A stretch of 64,000 nucleotides of DNA from IMG/VR virus record IMGVR_UViG_2734482597_000010; one strand, given 5' to 3'. The position numbers were made by a program, and so were the translations under genes. This DNA comes from a virus. Its lineage: Duplodnaviria > Heunggongvirae > Uroviricota > Caudoviricetes. A model generated the notes under the pieces. That model saw only the letters and a program-made list of their open reading frames with translations, was not told the origin of the DNA and made no database searches. This document shows, in pieces, positions 7,747 to 62,036 of this stretch (positions are counted from its first letter, which is position 1; each line of letters starts with the position of its first letter).

Positions 7747-8184
7747 TTAAGAGGCTTTTTGTTTTTTCTTTCGTGCTAGCTCTTCGTAAATTGCATTGTA
7801 CTTCTGTTTTTTCTCCTCAAGAGTTTTTAAAAGTTCATCTGTCTCACTGTCAGGGAGCTCGTCCAGAAGGTCAATGATGATTTTTTGTCTTGGATTTAAC
7901 TCCTGATAGAAACGTACCTGTCCACTTTCTTCTGTATCCTCTCCCAAAAGATAGGTTGGTGTTGTTCCAATGAGTGTTGCTAATTCCCTTAATTTCTCTC
8001 GGCGAGGAATTGTTTCGCCATTAAACCATTTGCTAACCGCTTTTGGTGTTAATTTCATTCGACGGGCAATTTCTGCCTGCCTTCCATGTTGTTCATAACC
8101 AGCGTTTTCACAGGCTAGCGCAAGCCTACTGGCGAACTCTTTACGCGCTTTATCTTCATGAACCATAAGTTCAATGATATTCAC
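7747..8184 (-). CDS. racR: Rac prophage repressor RacR (HTH, cI-like)
   Basis: 145-aa ORF with helix-turn-helix segment (QAEIARRMKLTPKAVSKWFNG); divergent from ydaS. Confidence 0.8.
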   Translation of the reverse strand: MNIIELMVHEDKARKEFASRLALACENAGYEQHGRQAEIARRMKLTPKAVSKWFNGETIPRREKLRELATLIGTTPTYLLGEDTEESGQVRFYQELNPRQKIIIDLLDELPDSETDELLKTLEEKKQKYNAIYEELARKKKQKAS

Positions 8185-8245
8185 TCTTGAATGTACTGTC
8201 AGTTCTGTTATAGCATGTACTCAAAGTTCACATTGTGAGGGTGAT
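8185..8245. promoter_or_regulatory. divergent racR / ydaS promoter-operator region
   Basis: 61-bp intergenic spacer between divergently oriented repressor and cro-like genes; contains repeated ATGTACT-type half sites. Confidence 0.4.
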
Positions 8246-8500
8246 ATGAACCAGAAAACACTTGAAGATGTAATCAAAACTGTTCGCGTTTCTGTTGTGG
8301 CCGACGTTTGTGGTGTCAGCCAAAGAGCAATCTACAAATGGATGGATAACGGAAAATTGCCTCGCACAGAATATACCGGCGAAACAAATTACGCTGAAAA
8401 AATCGCTCATGCATCAAACGGATTATTTTCTGCTGATGTAATTTTAACTATTGGCAGAAATAAAACTACTACGAAAAAGCTGATGGGAGTTGATTCATGA
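8246..8500 (+). CDS. ydaS: Cro-like HTH regulator YdaS
   Basis: ATG at 8246 (MNQKTLEDVIK) within the 108-aa ORF; HTH (VCGVSQRAIYKWMDNG). Confidence 0.75.
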   Translation: MNQKTLEDVIKTVRVSVVADVCGVSQRAIYKWMDNGKLPRTEYTGETNYAEKIAHASNGLFSADVILTIGRNKTTTKKLMGVDS

Positions 8501-8919
8501 AAATCAAGCATGAGCACATCGAGTCAGTGTTGTTAGCCCTGGCAGCCGAAAAAGGGCAGGCATGGGTAGCCAATGCCATTACTGAAGAATATCTGCGCCA
8601 GGGGGGCGGCGAATTGCCCCTGGTACCAGGCAAGGACTGGAATAATCAGCAGAATATCTATCACCGTTGGTTGAAAGGTGAAACGAAAACGCAAAGAGAA
8701 AAAATTCAGAAGCTGATCCCAGCAATTCTGGCAATCCTTCCGCGCGAGCTGCGTCACCGACTCTGCATCTTCGATACCCTGGAACGCCGTGCATTACTGG
8801 CGGCGCAGGAAGCGTTAAGTACGGCAATTGATGCGCATGATGATGCAGTCCAAGCCGTTTACCGGAAAGCGCATTTCAGCGGCGGCGGGTCTTCCGACGA
8901 TTCTGTCATTGTTCATTAA
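8497..8919 (+). CDS. ydaT: Rac protein YdaT (toxic when derepressed)
   Basis: 140-aa ORF overlapping the ydaS stop; sequence as recalled for K-12 YdaT. Confidence 0.75.
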   Translation: MKIKHEHIESVLLALAAEKGQAWVANAITEEYLRQGGGELPLVPGKDWNNQQNIYHRWLKGETKTQREKIQKLIPAILAILPRELRHRLCIFDTLERRALLAAQEALSTAIDAHDDAVQAVYRKAHFSGGGSSDDSVIVH

Positions 8920-8931
8920 GCAAAAGTTTCC

Positions 8932-9789
8932 ATGCTGTTTGTGCTTATTCTAAGCCACCGGGCAGCATCATACGGGGCAATTATGGCCGCATTACCATAC
9001 ATGCAACTGTACATAGCTGATTACCTGGCTGACACCATGCATTTGTCAGCAGAGGAGCATGGTGCGTATTTGTTGCTGATGTTCAATTACTGGCAAACAG
9101 GAAAGCCAATACCTAAAAACAGGCTGGCAAAAATTGCCCGTCTGACTAACGAGCGATGGGCTGATGTTGAACCATCCTTGCAGGAGTTTTTTTGCGATAA
9201 CGGCGAGGAATGGGTGCATCTTCGGATTGAGGAAGATCTGGCATCAGTCAGGGAAAAATTAACCAAAAAATCAGCCGCAGGAAAAGCATCTGTTCAGGCC
9301 AGAAGAAGCAGAAAGGAAGCAGATGTTCAAACAAAACAAGAGAGAAATTTAACAGGTGTTCAAACAGATGTTGAAGTGGTGTTTGAACATGATGTCAACA
9401 CAAAGGCAACTAATAAAGATACAGATAAAGATCTAAAAACAGATCCCCCCCTAAATCCCCCCCGGGGGAATCGAGGTGTCAAAAAGTTTGACCCTCTGGA
9501 TATTGCTTTGCCGAACTGGATTTCTGTCTCGCTTTGGCGTGAGTGGGTTGAATTTCGCCAGGCATTGCGAAAACCGATTCGAACGGAGCAGGGCGCTAAC
9601 GGGGCGATACGGGAGCTGGAAAAATTCCGCCAGCAGGGTTTTTCACCTGAGCAGGTGATTCGACACAGCATCGCCAATGAATACCAGGGCTTGTTCGCGC
9701 CGAAAGGTGTTCGACCTGAGACGTTACTCCGACAGGTTAACACCGTCTCGTTACCGGATAGTGCGATCCCGCCAGGCTTCAGGGGGTAA
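8932..9789 (+). CDS. ydaU: replication-module protein YdaU (DUF1376)
   Basis: 285-aa ORF in the position of a lambdoid O-like gene. Confidence 0.65.
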   Translation: MLFVLILSHRAASYGAIMAALPYMQLYIADYLADTMHLSAEEHGAYLLLMFNYWQTGKPIPKNRLAKIARLTNERWADVEPSLQEFFCDNGEEWVHLRIEEDLASVREKLTKKSAAGKASVQARRSRKEADVQTKQERNLTGVQTDVEVVFEHDVNTKATNKDTDKDLKTDPPLNPPRGNRGVKKFDPLDIALPNWISVSLWREWVEFRQALRKPIRTEQGANGAIRELEKFRQQGFSPEQVIRHSIANEYQGLFAPKGVRPETLLRQVNTVSLPDSAIPPGFRG

Positions 9790-9795
9790 CTGACC

Positions 9796-10542
9796 ATGAA
9801 AAATATTGCGACAGGCGACGTTCTTGAACGTATCCGCAGACTGGCCCCGTCACATGTAACCGCGCCATTCAAGACGGTAGCGGAGTGGCGCGAGTGGCAA
9901 CTTTCCGAAGGCCAGAAACGTTGTGAGGAGATCAACCGTCAGAATCGTCAGTTGCGGGTGGAAAAAATTCTGAATCGCTCTGGCATCCAGCCATTGCACC
10001 GCAAATGCTCGTTTTCGAATTACCAGGTGCAGAACGAAGCGCAGCGATACGCGTTGAGTCAGGCGAAATCCATCGCTGATGAACTGATGANNNNNNNNNN
10101 NNNNNNNNNNNNNNNNNNNNNNNNNNNNNNNNNNNNNNNNNNNNNNNNNNNNNNNNNNNNNNNNNNNNNNNNNNNNNNNNNNNNNNNNNNNNNNNNNNNN
10201 NNNNNNNNNNNNNNNNNNNNNNNNNNNNNNNNNNNNNNNNNNNNNNNNNNNNNNNNNNNNNNNNNNNNNNNNNNNNNNNNNNNNNNNNNNNNNNNNNNNN
10301 NNNNNNNNNNNNNNNNNNNNNNNNNNNNNNNNNNNNNNNNGGTGGTGCTGCACCAGATTGTTGATCGCCGGACAGCGTCGATGCGCAGCGTGGGGATGCT
10401 GACAAACCTGAACTATGAGGCCATGAAAACATTGCTCGGCGAGCGGATTATGGATCGCATGACCATGAACGGCGGGCGATGGGTGAATTTTAACTGGGAG
10501 AGCTGGCGTCCGAATGTCGTCCAGCCAGGAATTGAGAAGTAA
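9796..10542 (+). CDS. ydaV: DnaC-like helicase loader YdaV (interrupted by N run)
   Basis: 248-aa ORF; internal 250-nt N run at 10091-10340 preserves frame. Confidence 0.7.
10091..10340. other. run of 250 N (gap or masked sequence) inside ydaV
   Basis: literal n characters in the sequence. Confidence 1.
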
Positions 10543-10564
10543 TTTTTACCGGGAGGAAATTTTT

Positions 10565-11326
10565 ATGGAGACTGTTTTTGACGCACTGAAAGCAATGGGA
10601 AAAGCCACATCCATAGAACTTGCTGCGCGACTTGATATCAGTCGTGAAGAAGTGCTGAACGAACTATGGGAACTGAAAAAAGCTGGTTTCGTTGATAAAA
10701 GCGCGTACACCTGGCGTGTGGCTGATAACAACGTTCAGCAGGAACAGCCAATGCAGGCAGAACTGCCGGAAGAAACCACCACGGCAACTGTAGTGAAAAT
10801 CTCAGAGTGCGATTTAACCGCGACGATTGAACAACGCGGACCACAAACGGCGGATGAACTGGCTACGCTGTTCGGTACAACATCCCGCAAAGTTGCTTCA
10901 ACGCTGGCAATGGCAATCAGCAAAGGACGCCTGATTCGCGTAAACCAGAACAGTAAATTTCGTTACTGCATGCCGGGCGATAATTTACCAGCAGAGCCGA
11001 AAGCTGCATCGGTAGCGGAAACTGATGGTAAAGCCTTTCCTCAGCCAGCCGGTGTTGCGTTACCAGTACAGGAAGCGGCAACACAGGAAGATATTAAAAC
11101 AGAAACTGTGGCGGACATTGTGCAGTCGCTGCCATCGTTTACTGAAACGCAAGCGGATGACCTAGTTTTACCATCGCTGCATATGGCAAACCGCGAACTG
11201 CGTCGGGCGAAAAATCATGTCCAGAAGTGGGAGCGAGTCTGCGCCGCGCTGCGGGAGCTGAACAAGCACCGGGATATTGTCCGACAGATTGTCGATTCCT
11301 CCAGTCGTATTGTGTCGGAAAAGTGA
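10565..11326 (+). CDS. YdaW-like protein (DUF977-like), N-terminal winged-helix
   Basis: ATG at 10565 ([13 protein letters not shown]) with upstream GGGAGG; 253 aa within the 270-aa ORF. Confidence 0.5.
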
Positions 11327-11341
11327 TTGCCGGAGGCGCTT

Positions 11342-11758
11342 ATGGCAAAAGTTTTTACACAGGAAGAGCGTGAAAAAATTAAGGAGCAGGTTGTTGAGTT
11401 GGTACGCCAGAGTGGGCGCGAGACGTTAAGGCAACTGGAGGCCAAGACAGGTGCGACAAGATATCTGATGAGCATTCTTGCCAGAGAGTTGGTTGCCAGT
11501 GGCGATGTATACAACTCTGGCTATGGGTTATTCCCGTCTGAACAGGCTCGTAAGGATTGGAAAAACGCCCGCAAAAAACTATCCAGGGCAAAGGTGAAAA
11601 AAACGGTTGTGGTTGATCCTGACCTTATCTGGTCATTACCAGACGGAGAAATACGCCGCTATGACAGGCGTCAGAACATAATCTGTCGCGAGTGCCGGAA
11701 GAGTGAAGTTATGAAACGTGTACTGGCATTTTATCAAGGAAATCTTCGGTATTTATAG
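11342..11758 (+). CDS. hypothetical protein with N-terminal HTH-like segment and CxxC pair
   Basis: ATG at 11342 (MAKVFTQEERE) preceded by GGAGG; 138 aa within the 143-aa ORF. Confidence 0.4.
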   Translation: MAKVFTQEEREKIKEQVVELVRQSGRETLRQLEAKTGATRYLMSILARELVASGDVYNSGYGLFPSEQARKDWKNARKKLSRAKVKKTVVVDPDLIWSLPDGEIRRYDRRQNIICRECRKSEVMKRVLAFYQGNLRYL

Positions 11759-11833
11759 ACGTTACTAGATCAAAGAGCATTAGTTCATATGTAAATTGAC
11801 ATTTTTCTGGCACAGGGGAGAGCTAGCGTGGTT

Positions 11834-11857
11834 GTCCGCTTTGTGCCAATAGCGGAC
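11834..11857. promoter_or_regulatory. 7-bp inverted repeat GTCCGCT-N10-AGCGGAC upstream of the AT-rich cassette
   Basis: perfect inverted repeat seen in sequence, followed by TGgTATGTT extended -10-like element and SD AAGGAGG. Confidence 0.35.
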
Positions 11858-11896
11858 ATTGCTGGCTCATGGTATGTTAGTTTAAGGAGGCAGGTT

Positions 11897-12919
11897 ATGC
11901 CCTGTATTTCGCTGTGGTATAATAGTTGCGCAATTGATACAAGGGAGCGTTACATCGTGAAAATTGTTTTCGAGGTTAATGGAAAGAAAGTTCCACTAAA
12001 ATCTTTAAAATACATAAGCAAAAAAGATCAACTCGAAGTAATGAAAAACTGGTTCTTTGAAAACTTTGAAGATCCGGCAAATGCTTGTCCGTATGAAAGT
12101 AGAGAAGGTGGCTATGCTTACATATATGGCGGGCCGTATGATGCGAGCGAAGAACTACAATCCATCTTCGGTCAATATGTTAAATCTGAGTATATTGAGG
12201 AATTAGTAGATGAATTACAAACACAATGTTTTGACTGGTCTGGAAACTCAAATAATATAGATGATTGGTACGATGATGATATCTACGACGCTGTAACGTC
12301 TTCCGGTAATCCGTATTTAAAATTCATTGATAATATCGATAAAATAAAAAAACTTGCAAAAGATAAAACTGAACAACAGCAAAAAAACCACTTGCTTAGT
12401 TTGCTCTACACGAATGTTATTACAGCTTTGGAAACGCTTTATGTTGAGCTATTCATTAATTCTATAGAGAAAGATGATGTCTACATAGCCAATTGTATAG
12501 AAAAAGGTAAGACTGAATTTAAAGTAAGCAAAGATATTGCTGCGTTGCCTTTCAAGGGTGAACCCATCGAGAAAATTAGGGGAGAGCTAATCAGGTCAAT
12601 CAAGGAACACTTGATCAGTGCAAGCTGGCATAGCACTAAAAAGGTAATCGACCGCTATGAAGCTACATTCGATATAAAAGTACAAAAAGACTGTCCGATA
12701 GAAGCTATTGAATTGGCAACCCTCAATCGAAATCACTTAGTGCATCGTGGTGGAAAGGATAAAGAAGGGAACCTCGTAGTGATTACAGACCAGGATCTTG
12801 AAACGCTGATTGAAAATGCATCGAACCTGGCAATTATGCTCTACAACAGTTTAAATGTAGCAACGAATAAAACCACCATTTTGCAACCAGATGACAAACC
12901 GTTCATTCATGAATTTTAA
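11897..12919 (+). CDS. hypothetical protein, 340 aa, C-terminal R-x4-H (HEPN-like) motif; candidate defence protein
   Basis: ATG at 11897 six nt after AAGGAGG (within the 363-aa ORF); AT-rich coding; RNHLVH motif near C-terminus. Confidence 0.55.
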   Translation: MPCISLWYNSCAIDTRERYIVKIVFEVNGKKVPLKSLKYISKKDQLEVMKNWFFENFEDPANACPYESREGGYAYIYGGPYDASEELQSIFGQYVKSEYIEELVDELQTQCFDWSGNSNNIDDWYDDDIYDAVTSSGNPYLKFIDNIDKIKKLAKDKTEQQQKNHLLSLLYTNVITALETLYVELFINSIEKDDVYIANCIEKGKTEFKVSKDIAALPFKGEPIEKIRGELIRSIKEHLISASWHSTKKVIDRYEATFDIKVQKDCPIEAIELATLNRNHLVHRGGKDKEGNLVVITDQDLETLIENASNLAIMLYNSLNVATNKTTILQPDDKPFIHEF

Positions 12920-12934
12920 TAGCGCAGGTCATAC

Positions 12935-13936
12935 ATGGATATTCGCACACGAAAGACAAAATTTTTAGAGTCGTTAGATTCAACTGAAGTGATACGCAAA
13001 GCAGTAAGTCTCGCTATAGATTGCATTATTGATAATCATAATAGTAATGAAGATACCCCCTTAGTTATTACCAGCTATGATGATCTCTGTAGAATCCAGG
13101 TGCTAAATTATGTACAGGAGTTTTGCGAAGCTGCATTCCCTGATATGGATGAATATTACTTTAGTCCTAACATACTTCGCATCAACGGCAAGACTAGTGA
13201 AGAAGCTTGTATTAACTTAATTAAACTCTTAAGAAGTACAAAAGGCATGCTATTCTGGTCCGATGCCCCATCGTGGTTCGCTAGCCTCCCCGACGGATTA
13301 TTCCATGTTGTTAACATTGATCAAAAAATCGTTACTCGCGGCCTTAATAAGAAAAACTCTAAGCCGACAATAATCAATAAAGATTACAGTGTAGATACAC
13401 TACTATCAGAGCTATTTTTGAATGGCGCACACATGGAGCAACCCAACGTACACAACGTTTCTGAGGGAAACATGAAGTTCTATGATGAATGCCATGCTGG
13501 ATTAATCAGACCAATACCCGCTCCAATAGGCGCGTCATACGATGAAGAGATCACAATTAATTCTCCAGATTGGCAAAAGCTCGCGTGTGTAGCTTTACGC
13601 CGCTATCAGTCGAAGGAATGTCATGACGGAATGCAATGGGATACAACCGATCATGGTTGGACTGATGTAATCGCGTATCCATTCGTCGAAGAAATACAAT
13701 CAATGGATAATAGTGGTTATCGACAATGTTTAGTTGGGCTGGTCACAATAAACAATTCAAATGCAAATTCTCCGTACCTATCTACCGTTTGGATACATCC
13801 ATTTTATCGCAGGAGAGGGTTATTAAGTAAGTTATGGCCAAAATTACAAGAGTTATATGGAAGTAACTTCGAAATTGAGCGACCTAATGAAAATATGAAA
13901 GCATTTCTGAAAAGTGCGAAACACGCAGATTACTAA
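12935..13936 (+). CDS. hypothetical protein, 333 aa, C-terminal GNAT-like segment; candidate partner of upstream gene
   Basis: 333-aa ORF 15 nt downstream of previous stop; AT-rich; C-terminal WIHPFYRRRGLLSKLW. Confidence 0.55.
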   Translation: MDIRTRKTKFLESLDSTEVIRKAVSLAIDCIIDNHNSNEDTPLVITSYDDLCRIQVLNYVQEFCEAAFPDMDEYYFSPNILRINGKTSEEACINLIKLLRSTKGMLFWSDAPSWFASLPDGLFHVVNIDQKIVTRGLNKKNSKPTIINKDYSVDTLLSELFLNGAHMEQPNVHNVSEGNMKFYDECHAGLIRPIPAPIGASYDEEITINSPDWQKLACVALRRYQSKECHDGMQWDTTDHGWTDVIAYPFVEEIQSMDNSGYRQCLVGLVTINNSNANSPYLSTVWIHPFYRRRGLLSKLWPKLQELYGSNFEIERPNENMKAFLKSAKHADY

Positions 13937-14113
13937 TTTATGAATCAGTCTGTGGAGTTAGGGTTGGTGTGAACAAGTAGGGTAAGAGCCTCAACGTGAT
14001 GCTATGCCGACCTGCTCCCTGAGAATTCACACAGAAGGCTGCTAGCAATGTCTGCAGATCGCTCAAAGCGGACTAAAATGTTGGCTTGTTTCTGACTTAG
14101 AGCATTTAAGGAA

Positions 14114-14338
14114 GTGCTGGTGGTGACTGGTTGTTGTGTTCCATTTCTACAGAATAAAATCACAGAAACTATACCCAATAGTTGTATTGAATCACTGACG
14201 AGACAGCCTCATATTTATCAGGACTGGTGTGCGTCTAATACAGGGGGTTGTCGTGCTGGTTCTCAAATGTGCGCTGGCTATTGCGGCTGTAATGGCAATT
14301 TATTGTCTTGCTGTTGTTCTTATGGAGCGGCTTTCTGA
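14114..14338 (+). CDS. possible Cys-rich small protein (74 aa, 11 Cys), GTG start
   Basis: ORF from track only; no convincing SD; could be spurious. Confidence 0.2.
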   Translation: MLVVTGCCVPFLQNKITETIPNSCIESLTRQPHIYQDWCASNTGGCRAGSQMCAGYCGCNGNLLSCCCSYGAAF

Positions 14339-14556
14339 TTGATTACATACTGGCTAGAAAAAAGGTGTTACCTTGGTTTATCTTTGTCCGGCAAGGTGCG
14401 CTCATTAATCTTAAGTAAATTTATTGCTCAAGTATTCAGATTACTTCTTATGGTTGAAGTCTCCTGTCAATGTAGAACCAATATATTTACAAAAATGAGA
14501 CCCGTCGGGGATAGCCCTGCCGGGTCTGACTGTTAAAGCATTTTTAATATGATCAT

Positions 14557-16308: not shown

Positions 16309-16598
16309 TGGTGAATTTACGTAAAGCGGCTAAAGGCCAGATGTGCCAGATCAGAATCCCTGGCTACTGCAATCACAATCCCGAAACCTCTGTGCTGGCG
16401 CATTACAGGCTGGCGGGGACGTGCGGAACAGCGACAAAACCACATGATATGCAGGCGGCGATAGCCTGTAGCTCATGCCACGATCTAATCGACGGGCGGG
16501 TAAAAACCAGCGATTACACCAAAGAAGAATTGCGCCTGATGCATGCTGAAGGGGTTTTTCGCACACAAGAAATCTGGAGAAAGAAAGGTCATTTATGA
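16308..16598 (+). CDS. nin-region Cys-containing protein (DUF1364-like)
   Basis: 96-aa ORF with start overlapping previous stop; several Cys/His residues. Confidence 0.5.
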   Translation: MVNLRKAAKGQMCQIRIPGYCNHNPETSVLAHYRLAGTCGTATKPHDMQAAIACSSCHDLIDGRVKTSDYTKEELRLMHAEGVFRTQEIWRKKGHL

Positions 16599-17137
16599 TT
16601 TACCCAACGAATACAGGAAAAAGCGGAGAACACCTTCGCCTCACCACGCTGGAAAGTGTCTGGATTCAGGGAAAACTACGTATGTGGGGGCGCTGGTCGT
16701 ATATTGGCGGTGGCAGGTCAGGGAATATGTTCAATCAGTTGTTGGCATCCAAAAAACTGACGAAAACAGCCATTAATGAAGCCCTGCGCAGAATGAAAAA
16801 AGCGGGAATAGAGAAAGCTGAGCTGGAAGCGTTTTTGCGAGAGATGATCAACGGCAAGCAAAAGAGCTGGCTGGCGCATTGTACTGATGCAGAGGCGTTA
16901 TGTATTGATCGAGTCATAAGTGAGGTGCTGGCAGAGCATCCAGGATTGATTTGCATTCTCCGGCAACGCTATGAAGGGCGGGGGATGACTAAGCGCAAAA
17001 TGGCTGAATTGCTAAATGATGCACACCCAGAGTGGTGTTTTAGCACATGCGAAAAACGGATTGCTAATTGGTTAGCTGTTGCTGAGTATGCCCTATATAT
17101 TCCCATGCGTGAATCATTTGCTGAGAAAATGGCTTGA
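16595..17137 (+). CDS. putative late-gene antiterminator (Q-like)
   Basis: 180-aa ORF at the position of Q, followed by intrinsic terminators and the lysis cassette. Confidence 0.4.
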   Translation: MIYPTNTGKSGEHLRLTTLESVWIQGKLRMWGRWSYIGGGRSGNMFNQLLASKKLTKTAINEALRRMKKAGIEKAELEAFLREMINGKQKSWLAHCTDAEALCIDRVISEVLAEHPGLICILRQRYEGRGMTKRKMAELLNDAHPEWCFSTCEKRIANWLAVAEYALYIPMRESFAEKMA

Positions 17138-17215: not shown

Positions 17216-17245
17216 GTAAAAAAACCGCTTAATGCGGTTTTTTTA
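17216..17245 (+). terminator. rho-independent terminator downstream of Q-like gene
   Basis: A-run, stem AACCGC/GCGGTT with 5-nt loop, then T7 run. Confidence 0.55.
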
Positions 17246-17564
17246 CGTCAGGAAAGCAGGGGAGAATGCTGCTAGTTGGGCAACTGGTCTTTCTGCTCCA
17301 AATTATAACAGAGACCAGTTATAGTTTCGGTGCTGTGTTTTTTTTACAATATTGTGATAACACATTGCTGGCGGGAGTTTTGATATTTCTTGGCAGGGGC
17401 TGATGATGCGTTATCCTGATGTCGTCAACTCATATAAAATGAGATGAGAGATCATTGCAGGGTGGTTTGTAATTCGCTGTTTAGCGGGACAATATGTTGT
17501 CTGATACAAGACACCCGACGCCTCAGATTACTATAATAAAGACGAAGCATCCTTTGTATTGACC

Positions 17565-17590
17565 AACCGCCTGTTTAGGCGGTTCTTTTT
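17565..17590 (+). terminator. second intrinsic terminator-like hairpin
   Basis: stem AACCGCC/GGCGGTT, 6-nt loop, then CTTTTT. Confidence 0.45.
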
Positions 17591-18122
17591 GGGCTGGTTT
17601 ATTGTATGCCAAATGATTATTAAAAAGGTTGTGTTAATAACAAGATCCGAAATAATATGCCTGCATATTTTTATCTTGCTTATATTCTGCATATTGTGCA
17701 TAGCAGGCTCATCCCTGCAATCAAAACTGTATGATGAGTATTTTTTGTTTTCCTTTTTTCCAGTCATCTGATGATGACCTGCTTCTTTTTAATCCGGATC
17801 GACATCAGTTTTTTAAGATAATTCCTGCGAGTTATATGCATAAATGCCACAAACTCCGCATTTTATGTGGTTGGGAGTTGCCGGGCGCGCAGTGAGTTTG
17901 CTAAGAAAACTCCTGCATGGTGAATCCCCCTGTGCGGTGGGGTGATACCATTAACCTTTTCTGTCGCCGACAGGTATCACGAACATTTTGTTCACCGGGA
18001 GGCACCCGGCACCATGCACTTCAATAGATTCTCTCCACATTATGGATATTCTTTCAGAATATCCCACGCAGACTTTGTGTAAATGTTAACAAATGTGCGT
18101 TTTATTTGATCTGATTCGCTGT

Positions 18123-18152
18123 TTGAGCGTCCAAAACAACGGTATATATAAT
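18123..18152 (+). promoter_or_regulatory. sigma70-like promoter for lipoprotein gene
   Basis: TTGAGC (18123-18128), 18-bp spacer, TATAAT (18147-18152); SD GAGGAAAA before ATG 18182. Confidence 0.4.
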
Positions 18153-18181
18153 CCTTTACTATATGACATATGTGAGGAAAA

Positions 18182-18610
18182 ATGGGTTTTCGTAGCGCAT
18201 CAATTCTTACGTTGATTATTAGTGGGATTATTATCGGGTGCACTGATGCTGTATCGACAAATTATCATGACCGTACATCATATTACTCCGATAAAGCAAT
18301 AGAGACACAGTATGTGAGTTCATCTGAACGTACTTCTGATGTTAGTGAGGATATCCGTCTGTATGCCCATCAAATCAAGAGCGCCATCGAAAAACAGTTC
18401 GGGGATGCGAGTAAGTATTCAGGAAAAGAGTGTACACTGAGAATGCATATGGCCCCGAATGGCCTTCTACTGGAGGTTAAAAGAGAAAGTGGAGACCTCG
18501 ATTTATGTCGTGAAGCGATGAATGCGATAAAGAATGCTGATATACCTGCCCCCCCTTCGCCGGAAGTATATAAAGTATTTCAAAATGGGGTGCTGGATTT
18601 TAAACCCTGA
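18182..18610 (+). CDS. lipoprotein with TolA C-terminal (domain III)-like domain
   Basis: 142-aa ORF; signal peptide with lipobox IIGC; C-terminal 90 aa align with recalled E. coli TolA domain III (QIKSAIE..., GK.CTLR...P.G.LL..K...GD..LC..A..A...A.IP.PPS..VY.VF.N..LDFKP). Confidence 0.7.
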   Translation: MGFRSASILTLIISGIIIGCTDAVSTNYHDRTSYYSDKAIETQYVSSSERTSDVSEDIRLYAHQIKSAIEKQFGDASKYSGKECTLRMHMAPNGLLLEVKRESGDLDLCREAMNAIKNADIPAPPSPEVYKVFQNGVLDFKP

Positions 18611-18760
18611 TATTTATTGTTTTGTAATAAACGGTTTCGGCTTAGGTTTGTTCTGACACAGCTACGGCACTGAGCTAAATTTAGCGGATAGTCAGCTCTG
18701 AGCCAGTGGCGGACGTAACAACTACTATTGCTGAGATTTTAATGGATTGAGGAGCAAGAA

Positions 18761-19156
18761 GTGGGATTAAAGAAAATCGTTATGTTGACTTTTTGGGTCG
18801 GTTTTGTTGCGGGATGCACACCTTTACACCCTTCAGATTGCCACAAAACTACTGCTACAGGTAGTTGCAGTTCAGGACGCTGGGATGATCAGGATGAATG
18901 GGGGGCGCAAGCGCGGGGAATCAGAGCTGCAATTAATGCCAAACTTGATGAGCCGCATAACTGGAAAGGGAAAAAATGCAGGTTGCATATGGAATTCTCT
19001 CAGGATGGCACGGCGTTAAAAATATCTACCAGTAACGGTGATAAAGCCTATTGCGAAGCGATAAAGTCCGCAGCTCATAAAGCCAAATTTCCGGCCTTCA
19101 ACAATCCGGAAGTCTACAGAGATTTTCAGAAATCTGGCTTTGACATGCGAGGTTAG
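18761..19156 (+). CDS. second lipoprotein, diverged TolA-III-like paralogue
   Basis: 131-aa ORF; lipobox VAGC; same C-terminal pattern (GKKCRLHMEF...DG..L.IS...GD.AYCEA...A..A.FP....PEVY). Confidence 0.6.
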   Translation: MGLKKIVMLTFWVGFVAGCTPLHPSDCHKTTATGSCSSGRWDDQDEWGAQARGIRAAINAKLDEPHNWKGKKCRLHMEFSQDGTALKISTSNGDKAYCEAIKSAAHKAKFPAFNNPEVYRDFQKSGFDMRG

Positions 19157-19407
19157 CTCTTCAATTACTATATCTCATTCATAGCAAACTGACAGATTTG
19201 ATGATGTTCTATATACGAAACCTGTGATGTCAAGTCTGAGCTAATACAAATAAACATAATATCAGAGAAATACATTTTATTAGCTCGCTACGGCGAGCTT
19301 TTTATATTGCATCGTCTCCAGCATATATATCAATTAAGGCTCTGATTGATGTGTCTGAAAGCCTACACATAATAACTATGCCATCCGTTCCGTGCGGAGG
19401 TGAGGCT

Positions 19408-19627
19408 ATGAAATCCATGGACAAAATTTCAACAGGCATTGCCTACGGCACCTCCGCAGGCAGTGCTGGCTACTGGTTTTTACAGTTGCNNNNNNNNNNN
19501 NNNNNNNNNNNNNNNNNNNNCTGCAATCGGTGTGCTGGGTAGTCTGGTATTTGGCCTGCTGACGTACCTGACAAACCTTTATTTCAAGATTAAAGAAGAT
19601 AAGCGCAAGGCTGCGAGAGGTGAATAA
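19408..19627 (+). CDS. phage-21-type holin (pinholin-like), interrupted by N run
   Basis: [26 protein letters not shown] ... [34 protein letters not shown] across a 31-nt N run. Confidence 0.7.
19490..19520. other. run of 31 N inside holin gene
   Basis: literal n characters; length not a multiple of 3, so frame is broken in the ORF track. Confidence 1.
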
Positions 19628-20124
19628 TGTCGCCATCATTACGCAAGGCTGTTGCAGCTGCTATTGGTGGTGGGGCTGTTGCTATAGCATCTGTGTTAAT
19701 CACTGGCCCAGGTGGTAACGATGGTCTGGAAGGTGTCAGCTACATACCATACAAAGATATTGTTGGTGTATGGACTGTATGTCACGGGCATACAGGAAAA
19801 GACATCATGCTCGGTAAAACGTATACCAAAGCAGAATGCAAAACACTCTTGAATAAAGACCTTGCCACTGTCGCCAGACAAATTAACCCGTACATCAAAG
19901 TCGATATACCGGAAACAACGCGCGGCGCTCTTTACTCATTCGTTTACAACGTGGGTGCTGGCAATTTCAGAACATCGACGCTTCTTCGCAAAATAAACCA
20001 GGGCGATATCAAAGGCGCATGTGATCAGCTACGTCGCTGGACATATGCTGGCGGTAAGCAATGGAAAGGTCTCATGACTCGTCGTGAGATTGAGCGTGAA
20101 ATCTGTTTGTGGGGTCAGCAATGA
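19627..20124 (+). CDS. SAR endolysin (phage-21 R-type lysozyme)
   Basis: 165-aa ORF; N-terminal Gly/Ala-rich SAR segment ([20 protein letters not shown]); matches recalled R21 lysozyme. Confidence 0.9.
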
Positions 20125-20585
20125 ACAGAGTAACCGCGATTATCTCCGCTCTGGTTATCTGCATCATCGTCTGCCTGTCATGGGCTGTTAATCATTACCG
20201 TGATAACGCCATTACCTACAAAGCCCAGCGCGACAAAAATGCCAGAGAACTGAAGCTGGCGAACGCGGCAATTACTGACATGCAGATGCGTCAGCGTGAT
20301 GTTGCTGCGCTCGATGCAAAATACACGAAGGAGTTAGCTGATGCGAAAGCTGAAAATGATGCTCTGCGTGATGATGTTGCCGCTGGTCGTCGTCGGTTGC
20401 ACATCAAAGCAGTCTGTCAGTCAGTGCGTGAAGCCACCACCGCCTCCGGCGTGGATAATGCAGCCTCCCCCCGACTGGCAGACACCGCTGAACGGGATTA
20501 TTTCACCCTCCGGGAACGACTGGTAATGATGCAGGCCCAACTTGAAGGTGCTCAGCAATACATAACCGAGCAGTGTTTAAAGTAA
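20121..20585 (+). CDS. rz: i-spanin Rz
   Basis: ATG at 20121 ([17 protein letters not shown]) within the 158-aa ORF; N-terminal TM then coiled-coil. Confidence 0.8.
20341..20526 (+). CDS. rz1: o-spanin Rz1 embedded in +1 frame of Rz
   Basis: 61-aa ORF; lipobox VVGC; proline-rich ([15 protein letters not shown]). Confidence 0.7.
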
Positions 20586-39676: not shown

Positions 39677-40003
39677 NNNNNNNNNNNNNNNNNNNNNNNN
39701 NNNNNNNNNNNNNNNNNNNNNNNNNNNNNNNNNNNNNNNNNNNNNNNNNNNNNNNNNNNNNNNNNNNNNNNNNNNNNNNNNNNNNNNNNNNNNNNNNNNN
39801 NNNNNNNNNNNNNNNNNNNNNNNNNNNNNNNNNNNNNNNNNNNNNNNNNNNNNNNNNNNNNNNNNNNNNNNNNNNNNNNNNNNNNNNNNNNNNNNNNNNN
39901 NNNNNNNNNNNNNNNNNNNNNNNNNNNNNNNNNNNNNNNNNNNNNNNNNNNNNNNNNNNNNNNNNNNNNNNNNNNNNNNNNNNNNNNNNNNNNNNNNNNN
40001 NNN
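39677..40003. other. run of 327 N spanning K/I junction
   Basis: literal n characters; K start to I end is 74 nt shorter than in copy 2, so the run is not length-true. Confidence 1.
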
Positions 40004-57673: not shown

Positions 57674-60600
57674 ATGGGTAAAGGCAGCAGTAAGGGGCAT
57701 ACCCCGCGCGAAGCGAAGGACAACCTGAAGTCCACGCAGCTGCTGAGTGTGATCGATGCCATCAGCGAAGGGCCGGTTGAAGGTCCGGTGGATGGATTAA
57801 AAAGCGTGCTGCTGAACAGTACGCCGGTGCTGGACAGTGAGGGGAATACCAACATCTCCGGCGTCACGGTGGTGTTCCGGGCAGGTGAGCAGGAGCAGTC
57901 ACCGCCGGAGGGATTTGAATCCTCCGGCTCCGAGACGGTGCTGGGTACGGAAGTGAAATATGACACGCCGATCACCCGGACCATCACGTCGGCAAACATT
58001 GACCGACTGCGTTTTACCTTCGGTGTACAGGCACTGGTGGAAACCACCTCAAAGGGAGACAGGAATCCGTCTGAAGTTCGCCTGCTGGTTCAGATACAGC
58101 GTAACGGTGGCTGGGTGACGGAAAAAGACATCACCATTAAGGGCAAAACCACCTCGCAGTATCTGGCCTCGGTGGTGGTGGATAACCTGCCGCCGCGCCC
58201 GTTTAATATCCGGATGCGCAGAATGACGCCGGACAGCACCACAGACCAGCTGCAGAACAAAACGCTCTGGTCGTCATACACCGAAATCATCGATGTGAAA
58301 CAGTGCTACCCGAACACGGCACTGGTCGGCGTACAGGTGGATTCGGAGCAGTTCGGCAGCCAGCAGGTGAGCCGTAATTATCATCTTCGCGGGCGCATTC
58401 TGCAGGTGCCGTCGAACTATAATCCGCAGACGCGGCAATACAGCGGTATCTGGGACGGAACGTTAAAACCGGCATACAGCAACAACATGGCCTGGTGTCT
58501 GTGGGATATGCTGACCCATCCGCGCTATGGCATGGGGAAACGTCTTGGTGCGGCAGATGTGGATAAATGGGCGCTGTATGTCATCGGCCAGTACTGTGAC
58601 CAGTCGGTGCCGGACGGCTTTGGCAGCACGGAGCCGCGCATCACCTGTAATGCCTGGCTGACCACACAGCGCAAGGCGTGGGATGTGCTCAGTGATTTCT
58701 GCTCGGCGATGCGCTGTATGCCGGTATGGAACGGGCAGACGCTGACGTTCGTGCAGGACCGACAGTCGGATAAGGTGTGGGCCTATAACCGCAGTAATGT
58801 GGTGATGCCGGATGATGGCGCGCCGTTCCGCTACAGTTTCAGCGCCCTGAAAGACCGCCATAATGCCGTTGAGGTGAACTGGATTGACCCGGATAACGGC
58901 TGGGAGACGGCGACAGAGCTTGTGGAGGATACGCAGGCCATTGTCCGTTACGGTCGTAACGTCACGAAGATGGATGCCTTTGGCTGTACCAGCCGGGGGC
59001 AGGCACACCGCGCCGGGCTGTGGCTGATTAAAACGGAACTGCTGGAGACGCAGACCGTGGATTTCAGCGTGGGTGCTGAAGGGCTTCGTCATGTACCGGG
59101 CGATGTCATTGAAATCTGCGATGATGACTATGCCGGTATCCGCACCGGCGGGCGCGTGCTGGCGGTGAACAGCCAGACCCGGACGCTGACGCTCGACCGT
59201 GAAATCACGCTGCCATCCTCCGGCACCACGCTGATAAGCCTGGTTGACGGGCAGGGGAATCCGGTCAGCGTGGAGGTCCAGTCCGTCACCGACGGCGTGA
59301 AGGTAAAAGTGAGCCGTGTTCCTGACGGTGTTGCTGAATACAGCGTGTGGGGGCTGAAGCTGCCGACGCTGCACCAGCGATTGTTCCGCTGCGTGAGTAN
59401 NNNNNNNNNNNNNNNNNNNNNNNNNNNNNNNNNNNNNNNNNNNNNNNNNNNNNNNNNNNNNNNNNNNNNNNNNNNNNNNNNNNNNNNNNNNNNNNNNNNN
59501 NNNNNNNNNNNNNNNNNNNNNNNNNNNNNNNNNNNNNNNNNNNNNNNNNNNNNNNNNNNNNNNNNNNNNNNNNNNNNNNNNNNNNNNNNNNNNNNNNNNN
59601 NNNNNNNNNNNNNNNNNNNNNNNNNNNNNNNNNNNNNNNNNNNNNNNNNNNNNNNNNNNNNNNNNNNNNNNNNNNNNNNNNNNNNNNNNNNNNNNNNNNN
59701 NNNNNNNNNNNNNNNNNNNGCTGACAGTCCGGGCAGTAAATGCGTGGGGGCAGCAGGNNNNNNNNNNNNNNNNNNNNNNNNNNNNNNNNNNNNNNNNNNN
59801 NNNNNNNNNNNNNNNNNNNNNNNNNNNNNNNNNNNNNNNNNNNNNNNNNNNNNNNNNNNNNNNNNNNNNNNNNNNNNNNNNNNNNNNNNNNNNNNNNNNN
59901 NNNNNNNNNNNNNNNNNNNNNNNNNNNNNNNNNNNNNNNNNNNNNNNNNNNNNNNNNNNNNNNNNNNNNNNNNNNNNNNNNNNNNNNNNNNNNNNNNNNN
60001 NNNNNNNTGATTATTACTTTTATATCCGCAGTGTGAACACCGTTGGCAAATCGGCATTCGTGGAGGCTGTTGGTCAGCCGAGTGATGATGCATCCGGTTA
60101 TCTGGATTTTTTCAAAGGCGAGATAGGGAAAACCCATCTGGCTCAGGAGCTGTGGACGCAGATTGATAACGGTCAGCTTGCGCCTGACCTGGCTGAAATC
60201 AGGACGTCCATTACGGATGTCAGCAATGAAATCACGCAGACCGTCAATAAGAAACTGGAAGACCAGAGTGCGGCAATTCAGCAGATACAGAAGGTTCAGG
60301 TTGATACAAATAATAACCTGAACAGCATGTGGGCTGTGAAGCTGCAGCAGATGCAGGACGGACGCCTTTATATCGCGGGTATTGGTGCCGGTATTGAGAA
60401 CACCCCTGACGGCATGCAGAGTCAGGTGCTGCTGGCGGCGGACAGGATTGCGATGGTTAATCCTGCGAATGGCAACACAAAACCGATGTTTGTTGGTCAG
60501 GGCGATCAGATATTCATGAACGACGTGTTCCTGAAACGCCTGACGGCCCCCACCATTACCAGCGGTGGAAATCCATCGGCATTTTCCCTGACTCCGGACG

Positions 60601-61227: not shown

Positions 61228-62036
61228 ATGCGTAAAGTTTGTGCAGCCATTTTGTCCGCAGCCATTTGCCTGGCCGTATCCGGTGCGCCTGCATGGGCGT
61301 CTGAACATCAGTCCACGCTGAGCGCGGGGTATCTTCATGCCCGGACCAACGTTCCCGGCAGTGATGATCTGAACGGGATTAACGTGAAATACCGTTATGA
61401 GTTTACGGATACGCTGGGGCTGGTGACGTCATTCAGCTATGCAGGAGACAAGAATCGCCAGCTGACCCGTTACAGCGATACCCGCTGGCATGAAGATTCC
61501 GTGCGTAACCGCTGGTTCAGCGTGATGGCGGGGCCGTCTGTGCGCGTGAATGAATGGTTCAGCGCGTATGCGATGGCGGGTGTGGCTTACAGCCGTGTGT
61601 CGACTTTCTCCGGGGATTATCTCCGCGTAACTGACAACAAGGGGAAAACGCACGACGTGCTGACCGGAAGTGATGACGGTCGCCACAGCAACACGTCTCT
61701 GGCGTGGGGAGCTGGCGTGCAGTTTAACCCGACCGAATCCGTGGCCATTGATATTGCTTATGAAGGCTCCGNNNNNNNNNNNNNNNNNNNNNNNNNNNNN
61801 NNNNNNNNNNNNNNNNNNNNNNNNNNNNNNNNNNNNNNNNNNNNNNNNNNNNNNNNNNNNNNNNNNNNNNNNNNNNNNNNNNNNNNNNNNNNNNNNNNNN
61901 NNNNNNNNNNNNNNNNNNNNNNNNNNNNNNNNNNNNNNNNNNNNNNNNNNNNNNNNNNNNNNNNNNNNNNNNNNNNNNNNNNNNNNNNNNNNNNNNNNNN
62001 NNNNNNNNNNNNNNNNNNNNNTCGGTTATAAATTCT
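61228..62036 (+). CDS. lom: outer membrane protein Lom (interrupted by N run)
   Basis: signal peptide MRKVCAAILSAAICLAVSGAPAWA; matches recalled lambda Lom through ...IAYEGS, then N run, then ...GYKF stop. Confidence 0.8.
61772..62021. other. run of 250 N inside lom 3' end
   Basis: literal n characters; longer than the ~60 nt expected to be missing. Confidence 1.

Follow-up and report, generated by a model that had tools for sequence, protein, structure and literature searches.

Two lipoprotein genes with a TolA domain III

The DNA analysed here (the window; 64,000 nucleotides (nt), IMG/VR record IMGVR_UViG_2734482597_000010) is a Rac-type lambdoid prophage of Escherichia coli. Two small open reading frames (ORFs), ORF1 and ORF2, lie on its late strand between a Q-like gene and the holin gene. 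ORF1 (18182..18610, + strand, stop included) has an ATG start preceded by the Shine-Dalgarno sequence GAGG (18174..18177, +) and encodes a lipoprotein precursor of 142 amino acids (aa). ORF2 (18761..19156, + strand, stop included) has a GTG start preceded by GAGGAG (18749..18754, +) and encodes a lipoprotein precursor of 131 aa; both Shine-Dalgarno sites were read directly from the sequence. The GTG at 18761 was preferred over the ATG at ~18782 chosen by the Prokaryotic Genome Annotation Pipeline (PGAP) because of the GAGGAG site and the conserved MG[LV]KKI start in homologues. The internal ATG start used by PGAP removes the charged n-region of the signal peptide.

The ORF1 precursor consists of a signal peptide (residues 1–19), the lipobox residue Cys20 with Thr at +2, a disordered linker (residues 21–50) and a TolA domain III-like region (residues 51–142). 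ORF2 follows the same plan with a signal peptide (residues 1–18), Cys19 with Thr at +2, a linker (residues 20–40) holding Cys27 and Cys36, and a TolA domain III-like region (residues 41–131). The signal peptide of ORF1, MGFRSASILTLIISGIIIG followed by C20-T, has the lipobox IIGC and R4 in its n-region, and that of ORF2, MGLKKIVMLTFWVGFVAG followed by C19-T, has the lipobox VAGC and K4K5. Both fit the lipobox rule [LVI][ASTVI][GAS]C and include a hydrophobic h-region, and the lipobox Cys is invariant in 13/13 aligned family members with Thr, Ala or Ser at +2. The two lipoprotein-type ORFs of the initial annotation stand. Under the +2 sorting rule, a lipoprotein with Thr (and no Asp) at this position is sent to the outer membrane. 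As residue +2 is Thr in both proteins, both are probably anchored there, which refines the membrane-anchored periplasmic copy proposed earlier to a predicted outer membrane location.

The C-terminal halves of both proteins are genuine TolA domain III (TolAIII), a likeness noted in the initial annotation that alignment and structure prediction now confirm. The domain of ORF1 (residues 51–142; 18332..18607, +) is 59% identical to residues 334–421 of E. coli TolA and that of ORF2 (residues 41–131; 18881..19153, +) is 31% identical to E. coli TolAIII, corresponding to 52/88 and 27/88 residues when the 88-residue domain is aligned without gaps. Pfam family PF06519 (TolA_C, cut-off 25) is matched by ORF1 with 82.6 bits (E 2e-23) and by ORF2 with 54.6 bits (E 1e-14), and phmmer finds the E. 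coli TolAIII structures in the PDB (1S62, 3QDP, 2X9A, 1TOL) with E-values of 5e-28 and 5e-9, respectively. AlphaFold2 (AF2) models have a predicted local distance difference test score (pLDDT) > 90 across both domains and disordered, low-confidence N-terminal tethers. In Foldseek superpositions the model of ORF1 fits TolAIII (2x9a_B, 1tol) to 0.7 Å and that of ORF2 fits 3qdp to 1.1 Å; both models show the α/β fold of TolAIII with its three-stranded sheet. The Cys pair equivalent to C363/C388 is present in both domains.

The two proteins thus share with E. coli TolAIII (1S62, 1TOL, 2X9A, 3QDP/3QDR) the fold, the disulfide pair, the C-terminal β3 strand (LDFKP in ORF1) and the PF06519 assignment. 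They differ from E. coli TolA in that the domain is preceded only by a lipoprotein signal peptide and a short linker, and in their predicted location at the outer rather than the inner membrane. Neither protein matches TolA domain I or II, i.e., they have no N-terminal transmembrane anchor and no long helical domain II, which rules out a coupling to TolQR. Besides TolA_C, the Pfam scan gave only a weak TonB_2 match. The TolA profile NF007065 scores 107.8 for ORF1 and 53.7 for ORF2 against a cut-off of 213, with the match limited to profile positions 293–386 of 387. ORF1 passes the TIGR02794 cut-off of 59.45 on domain III alone (75.6), and ORF2 stays below it (47.2). By these matches we class ORF1 and ORF2 as members of the TolA_C domain family and not as TolA orthologues.

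Both families carry the mark of purifying selection in the ratio of non-synonymous to synonymous substitution (dN/dS, Nei-Gojobori). For the ORF2 family it is 0.08–0.15 at dS 0.5–1.1. It is also < 1 for the ORF1 family, with 0.09–0.34 in the domain and looser values in the signal peptide and linker. The ORF2-family linker (window 18818–18880) reads C-(A/T)-PLHPS-x-CHKTTATGSCSSGRW, including the extra C27 and C36, and is nearly invariant across genera, with 2–2.5 non-synonymous against ~12 synonymous changes. To judge from their sequences, both are functional genes.

Two families and their relatives

The initial annotation took the second gene for a diverged tandem paralogue of the first, and this did not hold. 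In their domains, 25/88 residues are common to the two proteins (29% by BLASTP, E 2e-18), an identity no higher than that of each with TolA. The 25/88 shared residues and the different distributions of their relatives rule out a tandem duplication, and the two genes are independent families that were brought side by side.

The ORF1 family consists of 142 aa proteins with variants at 91%, 74%, and 66% identity. Megablast found ORF1 in 888/5426 complete E. coli genomes (~16%), essentially always on the chromosome and in prophages, and the 66% variant in 136 genomes that may overlap with these 888. The cassette of both genes is 100% identical in 775/5426 of the same genomes. These E. coli counts are shaped by selection and also by the expansion of a near-clonal Rac-type prophage. 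ORF1 variants also occupy the same slot in other lambdoid prophages with other Q types, there without ORF2. One such prophage has the order Q (PF03589), tRNAs, STnc100, ORF1 variant, nanS-p-like esterase, DUF1378, DUF826, holin, lysozyme and Rz. This is the layout of the late region of Stx phages, with the ORF1-variant lipoprotein at the position of stx, in agreement with the slot assigned to the genes at the outset.

The two genes move together as a single module: in the IMG/VR database, ORF2 follows ORF1 in 77/77 informative loci. The same Q gene is shared by 38/73 of the cassette loci, and at least two Q types occur in combination with the cassette. Phage mEp460_ev081 and the window have the module 17991–19489 in common, and their late regions are otherwise different. 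The two genes thereby show the moron trait of a discrete insert found in some related phages and absent from others.

Members of the ORF2 family (131–149 aa, 78–89% identical) are found in about 30 species of Enterobacterales, spanning Citrobacter, Enterobacter, Klebsiella, Raoultella, Serratia, Leclercia, Kluyvera, Pantoea, Rouxiella and other genera. In Enterobacter kobei and Serratia marcescens the homologue is a lone chromosomal gene in non-phage surroundings. The S. marcescens copy (L010/L011, 8001–10736) lies directly upstream of a GmrSD_N and HEPN gene pair, a setting that resembles a defence island. Across 34 loci with an ORF2 homologue, we counted 21 different upstream and 26 different downstream contexts, which argues for a gene that is mobile and not syntenic.

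A copy of ORF2 (87–88% identical) is also carried by ~600 plasmids of the IncF (among them pO157) and IncK types. The IncF copies follow psiB-psiA-hok, and those of IncK2/Z plasmids are placed between the relaxase gene and trbC. We had considered a constant position in the plasmid leading region for the ORF2 relatives, and the difference between these two sites ruled it out. Nucleotide homology between plasmids and prophage is confined to the ORF2 gene and 30 nt upstream of it (window 18731–19159). Two 8-kb contigs from metagenome-assembled genomes labelled Lachnospiraceae and Treponemataceae (L105, L106) hold an 89% identical ORF2 homologue with common flanks, and are most likely mis-binned fragments of enterobacterial plasmids.

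A third family of TolAIII lipoproteins (144 aa, cleavage site LITAC|S) is present on ~310 plasmids in PLSDB, mostly from Klebsiella and Enterobacter. Its gene adjoins a gene for a thioredoxin-fold protein, and the protein carries a DDLLGNL motif like the one preceding domain III in TolA. The locus that we looked at (L094, 4217–5246) is on K. pneumoniae pMR0617ctx, an IncFIB/IncFII conjugative plasmid. Word-indexed protein searches miss distant relatives. Searching 1.84 billion cluster representatives with a profile yielded 584 matches at E ≤ 1e-3; among the best 150 of these, 80 are 100–170 aa long, and at least 56 of the 80 have a lipobox. The named members that were looked up all come from Enterobacterales and carry generic names only. 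The short TolAIII lipoproteins make up a large, diverse and uncharacterised class.

The slot between the Q-like gene and the holin gene

In E. coli strain ECCHD184, an identical locus has the order intR-xisR-...-recET-kilR-sieB-...-DUF1367-DUF1364-DUF1133(Q-like)-[two TolA-like genes]-essD-rrrD-Rz-trkG. The slot is bounded upstream by the Q-like late antiterminator gene (DUF1133 family; 16595..17137, +), which is named after the PGAP annotation of this identical locus, and whose Pfam family also precedes the ORF1 variant in a related prophage (L101). Downstream it is bounded by an essD-type holin gene (~19408..19627, +). The placement between Q and the holin given in the initial annotation is therefore correct. 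The holin gene is split by a run of masked N (19490–19520) that exceeds the real sequence by 4 nt, so that its frame appears broken. No tRNA genes were found in the slot of the window; related prophages do carry them there.

An STnc100-like structured RNA element (Rfam RF02076; 17885..18071, +) ends 110 nt upstream of ORF1. It was identified by cmscan with 86.6 bits against a gathering threshold of 47 (E 3e-19). Homology with phage mEp460 begins within it, at 17991, which marks the mosaic breakpoint between the two. Further STnc100-like copies were found downstream of Q and tRNA genes in a related prophage (L101, 5704–5877, 6599–6803 and 6854–7061) and in L001 (5782–5972), and those of L101 bracket its ORF1 variant, one lying before it and two after it. 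The repeated element may serve as a recombination boundary for the exchange of late-region cargo. The terminal hairpin of the copy in the window is not followed by a T-run, so read-through into ORF1 is possible.

A σ70 promoter-like motif, TTGAGC-18 nt-TATAAT (18123..18152, +), matches the consensus at 10/12 positions and is well placed for a start ~22 nt before the ATG of ORF1. The promoter proposed for ORF1 remains a putative one: 11 such matches occur in 3.2 kb compared with 6.9 ± 2.2 in shuffled sequences, an enrichment that is not significant. No terminator was found between ORF1 and ORF2. A hairpin resembling an intrinsic terminator, AGCTCGC-TACG-GCGAGCT (19282–19299) followed by the T-run TTTTTATATT (together 19282..19308, +), lies between ORF2 and the holin gene. 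Its fold of −13 kcal/mol (z = −3.4) was equalled by 0/200 shuffles, which makes it a convincing terminator. With a terminator after ORF2 and a possible promoter before ORF1, the layout fits a two-gene moron. We also considered a "TolA"-type gene, EDL933_2012, said to be 32-fold up under ciprofloxacin, as expression evidence (PMC11125564), and dropped it because the supplement lists a tail fibre protein.

The remainder of the lysis cassette (19627..20585), taken from the ORF list and the annotation of the identical locus, comprises the genes for lysozyme (19627–20124, +) and Rz (20109–20585, +), the latter with the embedded gene for the Rz1 lipoprotein (20341–20526, +). It is followed by trkG, as in the Rac prophage of K-12. 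A hairpin flanked by an A-run and a T-run can be read at 17219–17245, just after the Q-like gene. Downstream of it, at 17508–17590, a promoter-like AAGACA-18-TATAAT is followed 30 nt on by a terminator-like hairpin (17565–17584), and the two could be a Q-dependent late promoter and its terminator. Farther away, the stretch ~8100–14360 of the window (L004, 10015–16265) holds non-phage genes inserted as a block into the Rac-type prophage, flanked by the replication genes and hokD. They encode a BCCT transporter, a DUF2254 protein, a LysR regulator, a gamma-glutamylcyclotransferase and an MFS transporter. Further runs of masked N are found at 10091–10340, 39677–40003, 59400–59719, 59758–60007, and 61772–62021.

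Ligand surface and possible functions

Domain III of TolA is a periplasmic hub bound by the N-terminus of TolB, by the translocation domains of Tol-dependent colicins (A, N, E1, K) and by the N1 domain of the filamentous phage protein g3p (g3p-N1). Its β3 strand and α2 helix bind g3p, colicin N, and TolB through backbone β-addition, colicin A binds TolA at 375-LLDIKP-380, and single prolines in β3 abolish all of these functions (PMC4339652). The affinities are ~1 µM for colicin N, 12–15 µM for g3p and 40 µM for TolB (PMC4339652). We therefore looked for a functional ligand site in the form of a proline-free β3 (A415–K420), the α2 residues and the colicin A box 375-LLDIKP-380. ORF1 keeps Y340, I344, I348 and the C-terminal LDFKP of β3 identically, and its colicin A box is conservatively changed to LLEVKR, so that a functional site is predicted. 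ORF1 closely mimics E. coli TolAIII. In ORF2, β3 reads FDMRG, which is proline-free and keeps D418, and the predicted site is preserved in part only. Among 61 short lipoprotein forms, compared with 48 true TolA domains, Y340 is conserved in 79%, F419 in 82% and D418 in 70%. Positions conserved in both groups are those of the fold core and also Y340, F419 and D418. A conserved acidic W41-x5-W47 motif of ORF2 was considered as a mimic of the colicin TolB box and found no support, as AF2 puts it in the first helix of the domain. Its Trp spacing is also unlike that of ColE9.

On this basis, a decoy function appears to be the best supported reading, and we put its probability at roughly 45%: ORF1 and ORF2 would act as decoys that confer tolerance to Tol-dependent colicins and filamentous phage. 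This makes more specific the decoy of the initial annotation, which was put forward there for superinfection exclusion or colicin tolerance. The two genes would form a mobile cargo cassette for two different lipoproteins, each with a free TolAIII on a tether of 20–35 residues. After Sec export and lipidation at Cys20 and Cys19, respectively, Lol sorting would bring them to the inner leaflet of the outer membrane. The tethered domain would then sit beneath the porins and receptors, where colicin translocation domains and g3p arrive, and would capture these ligands by the same β-strand addition as TolA. As the copy has neither domain I nor domain II, and hence no link to the TolQR motor, a captured ligand would get no further, and the lysogen or plasmid host would become tolerant to Tol-dependent bacteriocins and filamentous phage. 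Expression could come from the local promoter in the lysogen and, as position and strand suggest, from Q-antiterminated late transcription after induction. Since the ORF2 family is spread throughout the Enterobacterales and has an altered surface, the pair probably covers different ligands.

The retained β3/α2 surface, the strong purifying selection and laboratory precedents for sequestration make such a decoy plausible. Periplasmic export of TolAIII was reportedly found by Levengood-Freyermuth et al. in 1993 to make E. coli colicin-tolerant and leaky, and Bouveret et al. are said to have observed both colicin tolerance and leakiness with periplasmic TolAIII in 2002. Periplasmic g3p-N1 or pIII sequesters TolA, with colicin A resistance and 4-log lower phage uptake as the result (PMC10424213), and Tol-interacting domains in the periplasm cause hypervesiculation (PMC8488215). 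The affinities also favour a decoy because colicin N binds at 1 µM and TolB at 40 µM, and a decoy placed at the outer membrane would be expected to favour high-affinity ligands. The distribution over varied Q and lysis modules, plasmids and many chromosomal contexts is the pattern of a mobile accessory gene.

Several points weigh against a decoy. The genes are present in only 1/50,697 sequenced phages (mEp460_ev081). PADLOC gave no match, the matched family PHROG 5772 is listed with "unknown function", and full-text literature searches found no study of these proteins. The promoter of ORF1 is a consensus match only, and no comparable σ70 motif was found before the 66% ORF1 variant or the pO157 plasmid copy. 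In ORF2, Y340 is replaced by Q and F419 by M and the colicin A box has diverged, so its ligands may not be the classical ones. Its 21-residue linker is constrained as strongly as the domain, which a plain tether with a decoy leaves unexplained. A TolAIII copy should also bind the N-terminus of TolB, and this could carry a cost in envelope integrity.

Some of these points lead to the alternative that survives best, although we hold it to be unlikely, namely that the TolAIII scaffold has another partner, in envelope physiology or specific to the plasmid or phage, and that the classical ligands are irrelevant, especially for the ORF2 family. Such a partner would agree with the 31% identity of ORF2 to TolAIII and with its diverged ligand residues, while its constrained linker with two extra Cys suggests a second functional element. 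The thioredoxin-fold gene next to the third family on Klebsiella plasmids and the great diversity of the short TolAIII lipoproteins point the same way. Yet what the short forms conserve along with true TolA is not just the fold core but also Y340, F419 and D418 of the ligand groove, ORF1 nearly copies the surface of the E. coli domain, and the gene neighbourhood is not conserved, which suggests no alternative partner.

The possible cost in envelope integrity would favour a second alternative, which seems improbable to us: the lipoproteins could sabotage Tol-Pal by binding the N-terminus of TolB (or Pal) at the outer membrane and uncoupling TolB-Pal from TolA, and the late loosening of the envelope would give vesicles, leakage and easier lysis and release. 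Since the genes share the late strand and lie between Q and the holin, they should be strongly transcribed after induction, and with both partners on the same membrane the local concentration would be higher. TolB uses the retained β3 site, and blocking the TolA-TolB contact gives the full tol phenotype (PMC4339652). The hypervesiculation caused by periplasmic Tol-interacting domains (PMC8488215) would fit as well. The affinity of TolB for TolAIII is, however, weak (40 µM; PMC4339652), and the phage already has a holin, an endolysin and spanins. Moreover, strong purifying selection maintains the ORF2 relatives on plasmids and at many places in chromosomes where no lysis genes are close by, and the cassette ends in a terminator of its own and may have a promoter, like morons expressed in the lysogen.

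That ORF1 is non-functional debris, a captured 3′ fragment of tolA, is very improbable. In RefSeq, PGAP does mark it in the identical locus (NZ_CP033250.1, 2184660–2185466) as "tolA, incomplete, missing N-terminus", a pseudogene, and other records name these small proteins "cell envelope integrity protein TolA". The pseudogene label can be traced to TIGR02794, a TolA profile whose cut-off is passed by domain III on its own. ORF1 is nevertheless intact, with its own Shine-Dalgarno sequence and a complete lipoprotein signal peptide, which TolA does not have; the 91% and 66% variants keep the 142 aa architecture in other prophages; and dN/dS is < 1. A recent capture of the 3′ end of the host tolA is ruled out by the ~59% identity, the separate signal peptide and the purifying selection. 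The mis-annotation as a tolA fragment or "TolA" is systematic, and the genomes and plasmids affected number many hundreds. That either protein serves as a working TolA substitute or paralogue within the Tol-Pal machine, as suggested by these database names and the gene ontology (GO) term bacteriocin transport, deserves next to no credence, as both proteins stay far below the NF007065 cut-off on its positions 293–386 only, and a lipoprotein that has neither the transmembrane domain I nor the helical domain II, and no inner membrane anchor, cannot be energised by TolQR.

A decoy of the kind we favour would have both parallels and contrasts among known systems. Mobile elements encode several outer membrane lipoproteins that protect the carrier cell, including Llp of T5, Cor of phi80, N15 and HK022, Bor of lambda and TraT of F. 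Like these, ORF1 and ORF2 are small lipoproteins from accessory genes that would act at the envelope. The known ones are expressed in the carrier cell, and several are encoded beside lysis genes. ORF1 and ORF2 are not related to them in sequence and match only TolA_C and PHROG 5772. Llp and Cor inactivate the receptor FhuA, whereas ORF1 and ORF2 would duplicate a host hub domain as bait. When g3p/pIII of filamentous phages sequesters TolA, with superinfection immunity and colicin tolerance as the outcome, a mobile element likewise makes one half of a TolAIII-ligand pair in the periplasm and blocks entry through Tol (PMC10424213). There, the ligand of the element blocks the host receptor, whereas here a copy of the receptor would block the ligand and leave the host TolA free. 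The periplasmic Tol, colicin and phage domains used in the laboratory are also free Tol-interacting domains that lead to colicin or phage tolerance, to a leaky, vesiculating envelope or to both, but these are engineered, soluble and over-produced, whereas ORF1 and ORF2 belong to natural, selected families and are predicted to be lipid-anchored. Stx and other cargo of lambdoid prophages use the same slot between Q and the holin, with a toxin in the case of Stx and an envelope lipoprotein in this case. The TolA_C annotation is already in the databases; we did not find the lipoprotein architecture, the spread over mobile elements or the likely role described in the literature.

It is also possible, though we suggest this more tentatively, that decoy immunity based on TolA hub domain copies, probably held at the outer membrane by a tether, is widespread and unrecognised across the Enterobacterales. 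The carriers of such copies are prophages, plasmids of the F and I complexes and mobile cassettes in chromosomes, and the copies would intercept Tol-dependent bacteriocins and filamentous phage g3p at the outer membrane while sparing the Tol-Pal system of the host. Each of the ORF1-like, ORF2-like and Klebsiella plasmid families would then be adapted to ligands of its own. For conjugative plasmids, which attract TolA-dependent filamentous phages through their pili, the decoy would amount to self-defence.

Under either reading, the RefSeq names for these genes, tolA fragment and "TolA", are wrong. If the proteins disturb Tol-Pal instead of acting as decoys, they would naturally modulate envelope integrity and vesiculation, with their genes in the slot that holds the toxin in Stx phages. 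If they are decoys, roughly every sixth E. coli genome would carry a simple one-gene shield, and so would many hundreds of plasmids of the F and I complexes from E. coli, Shigella and Klebsiella, pO157 among them. The shield would be directed at an entire class of bacteriocins and at filamentous phages. This would help explain why natural isolates are frequently tolerant to colicins, and it would bear on antimicrobial or delivery strategies based on colicins, phages or M13. The duplication of a host hub domain as bait would then be a new defence principle for mobile elements.

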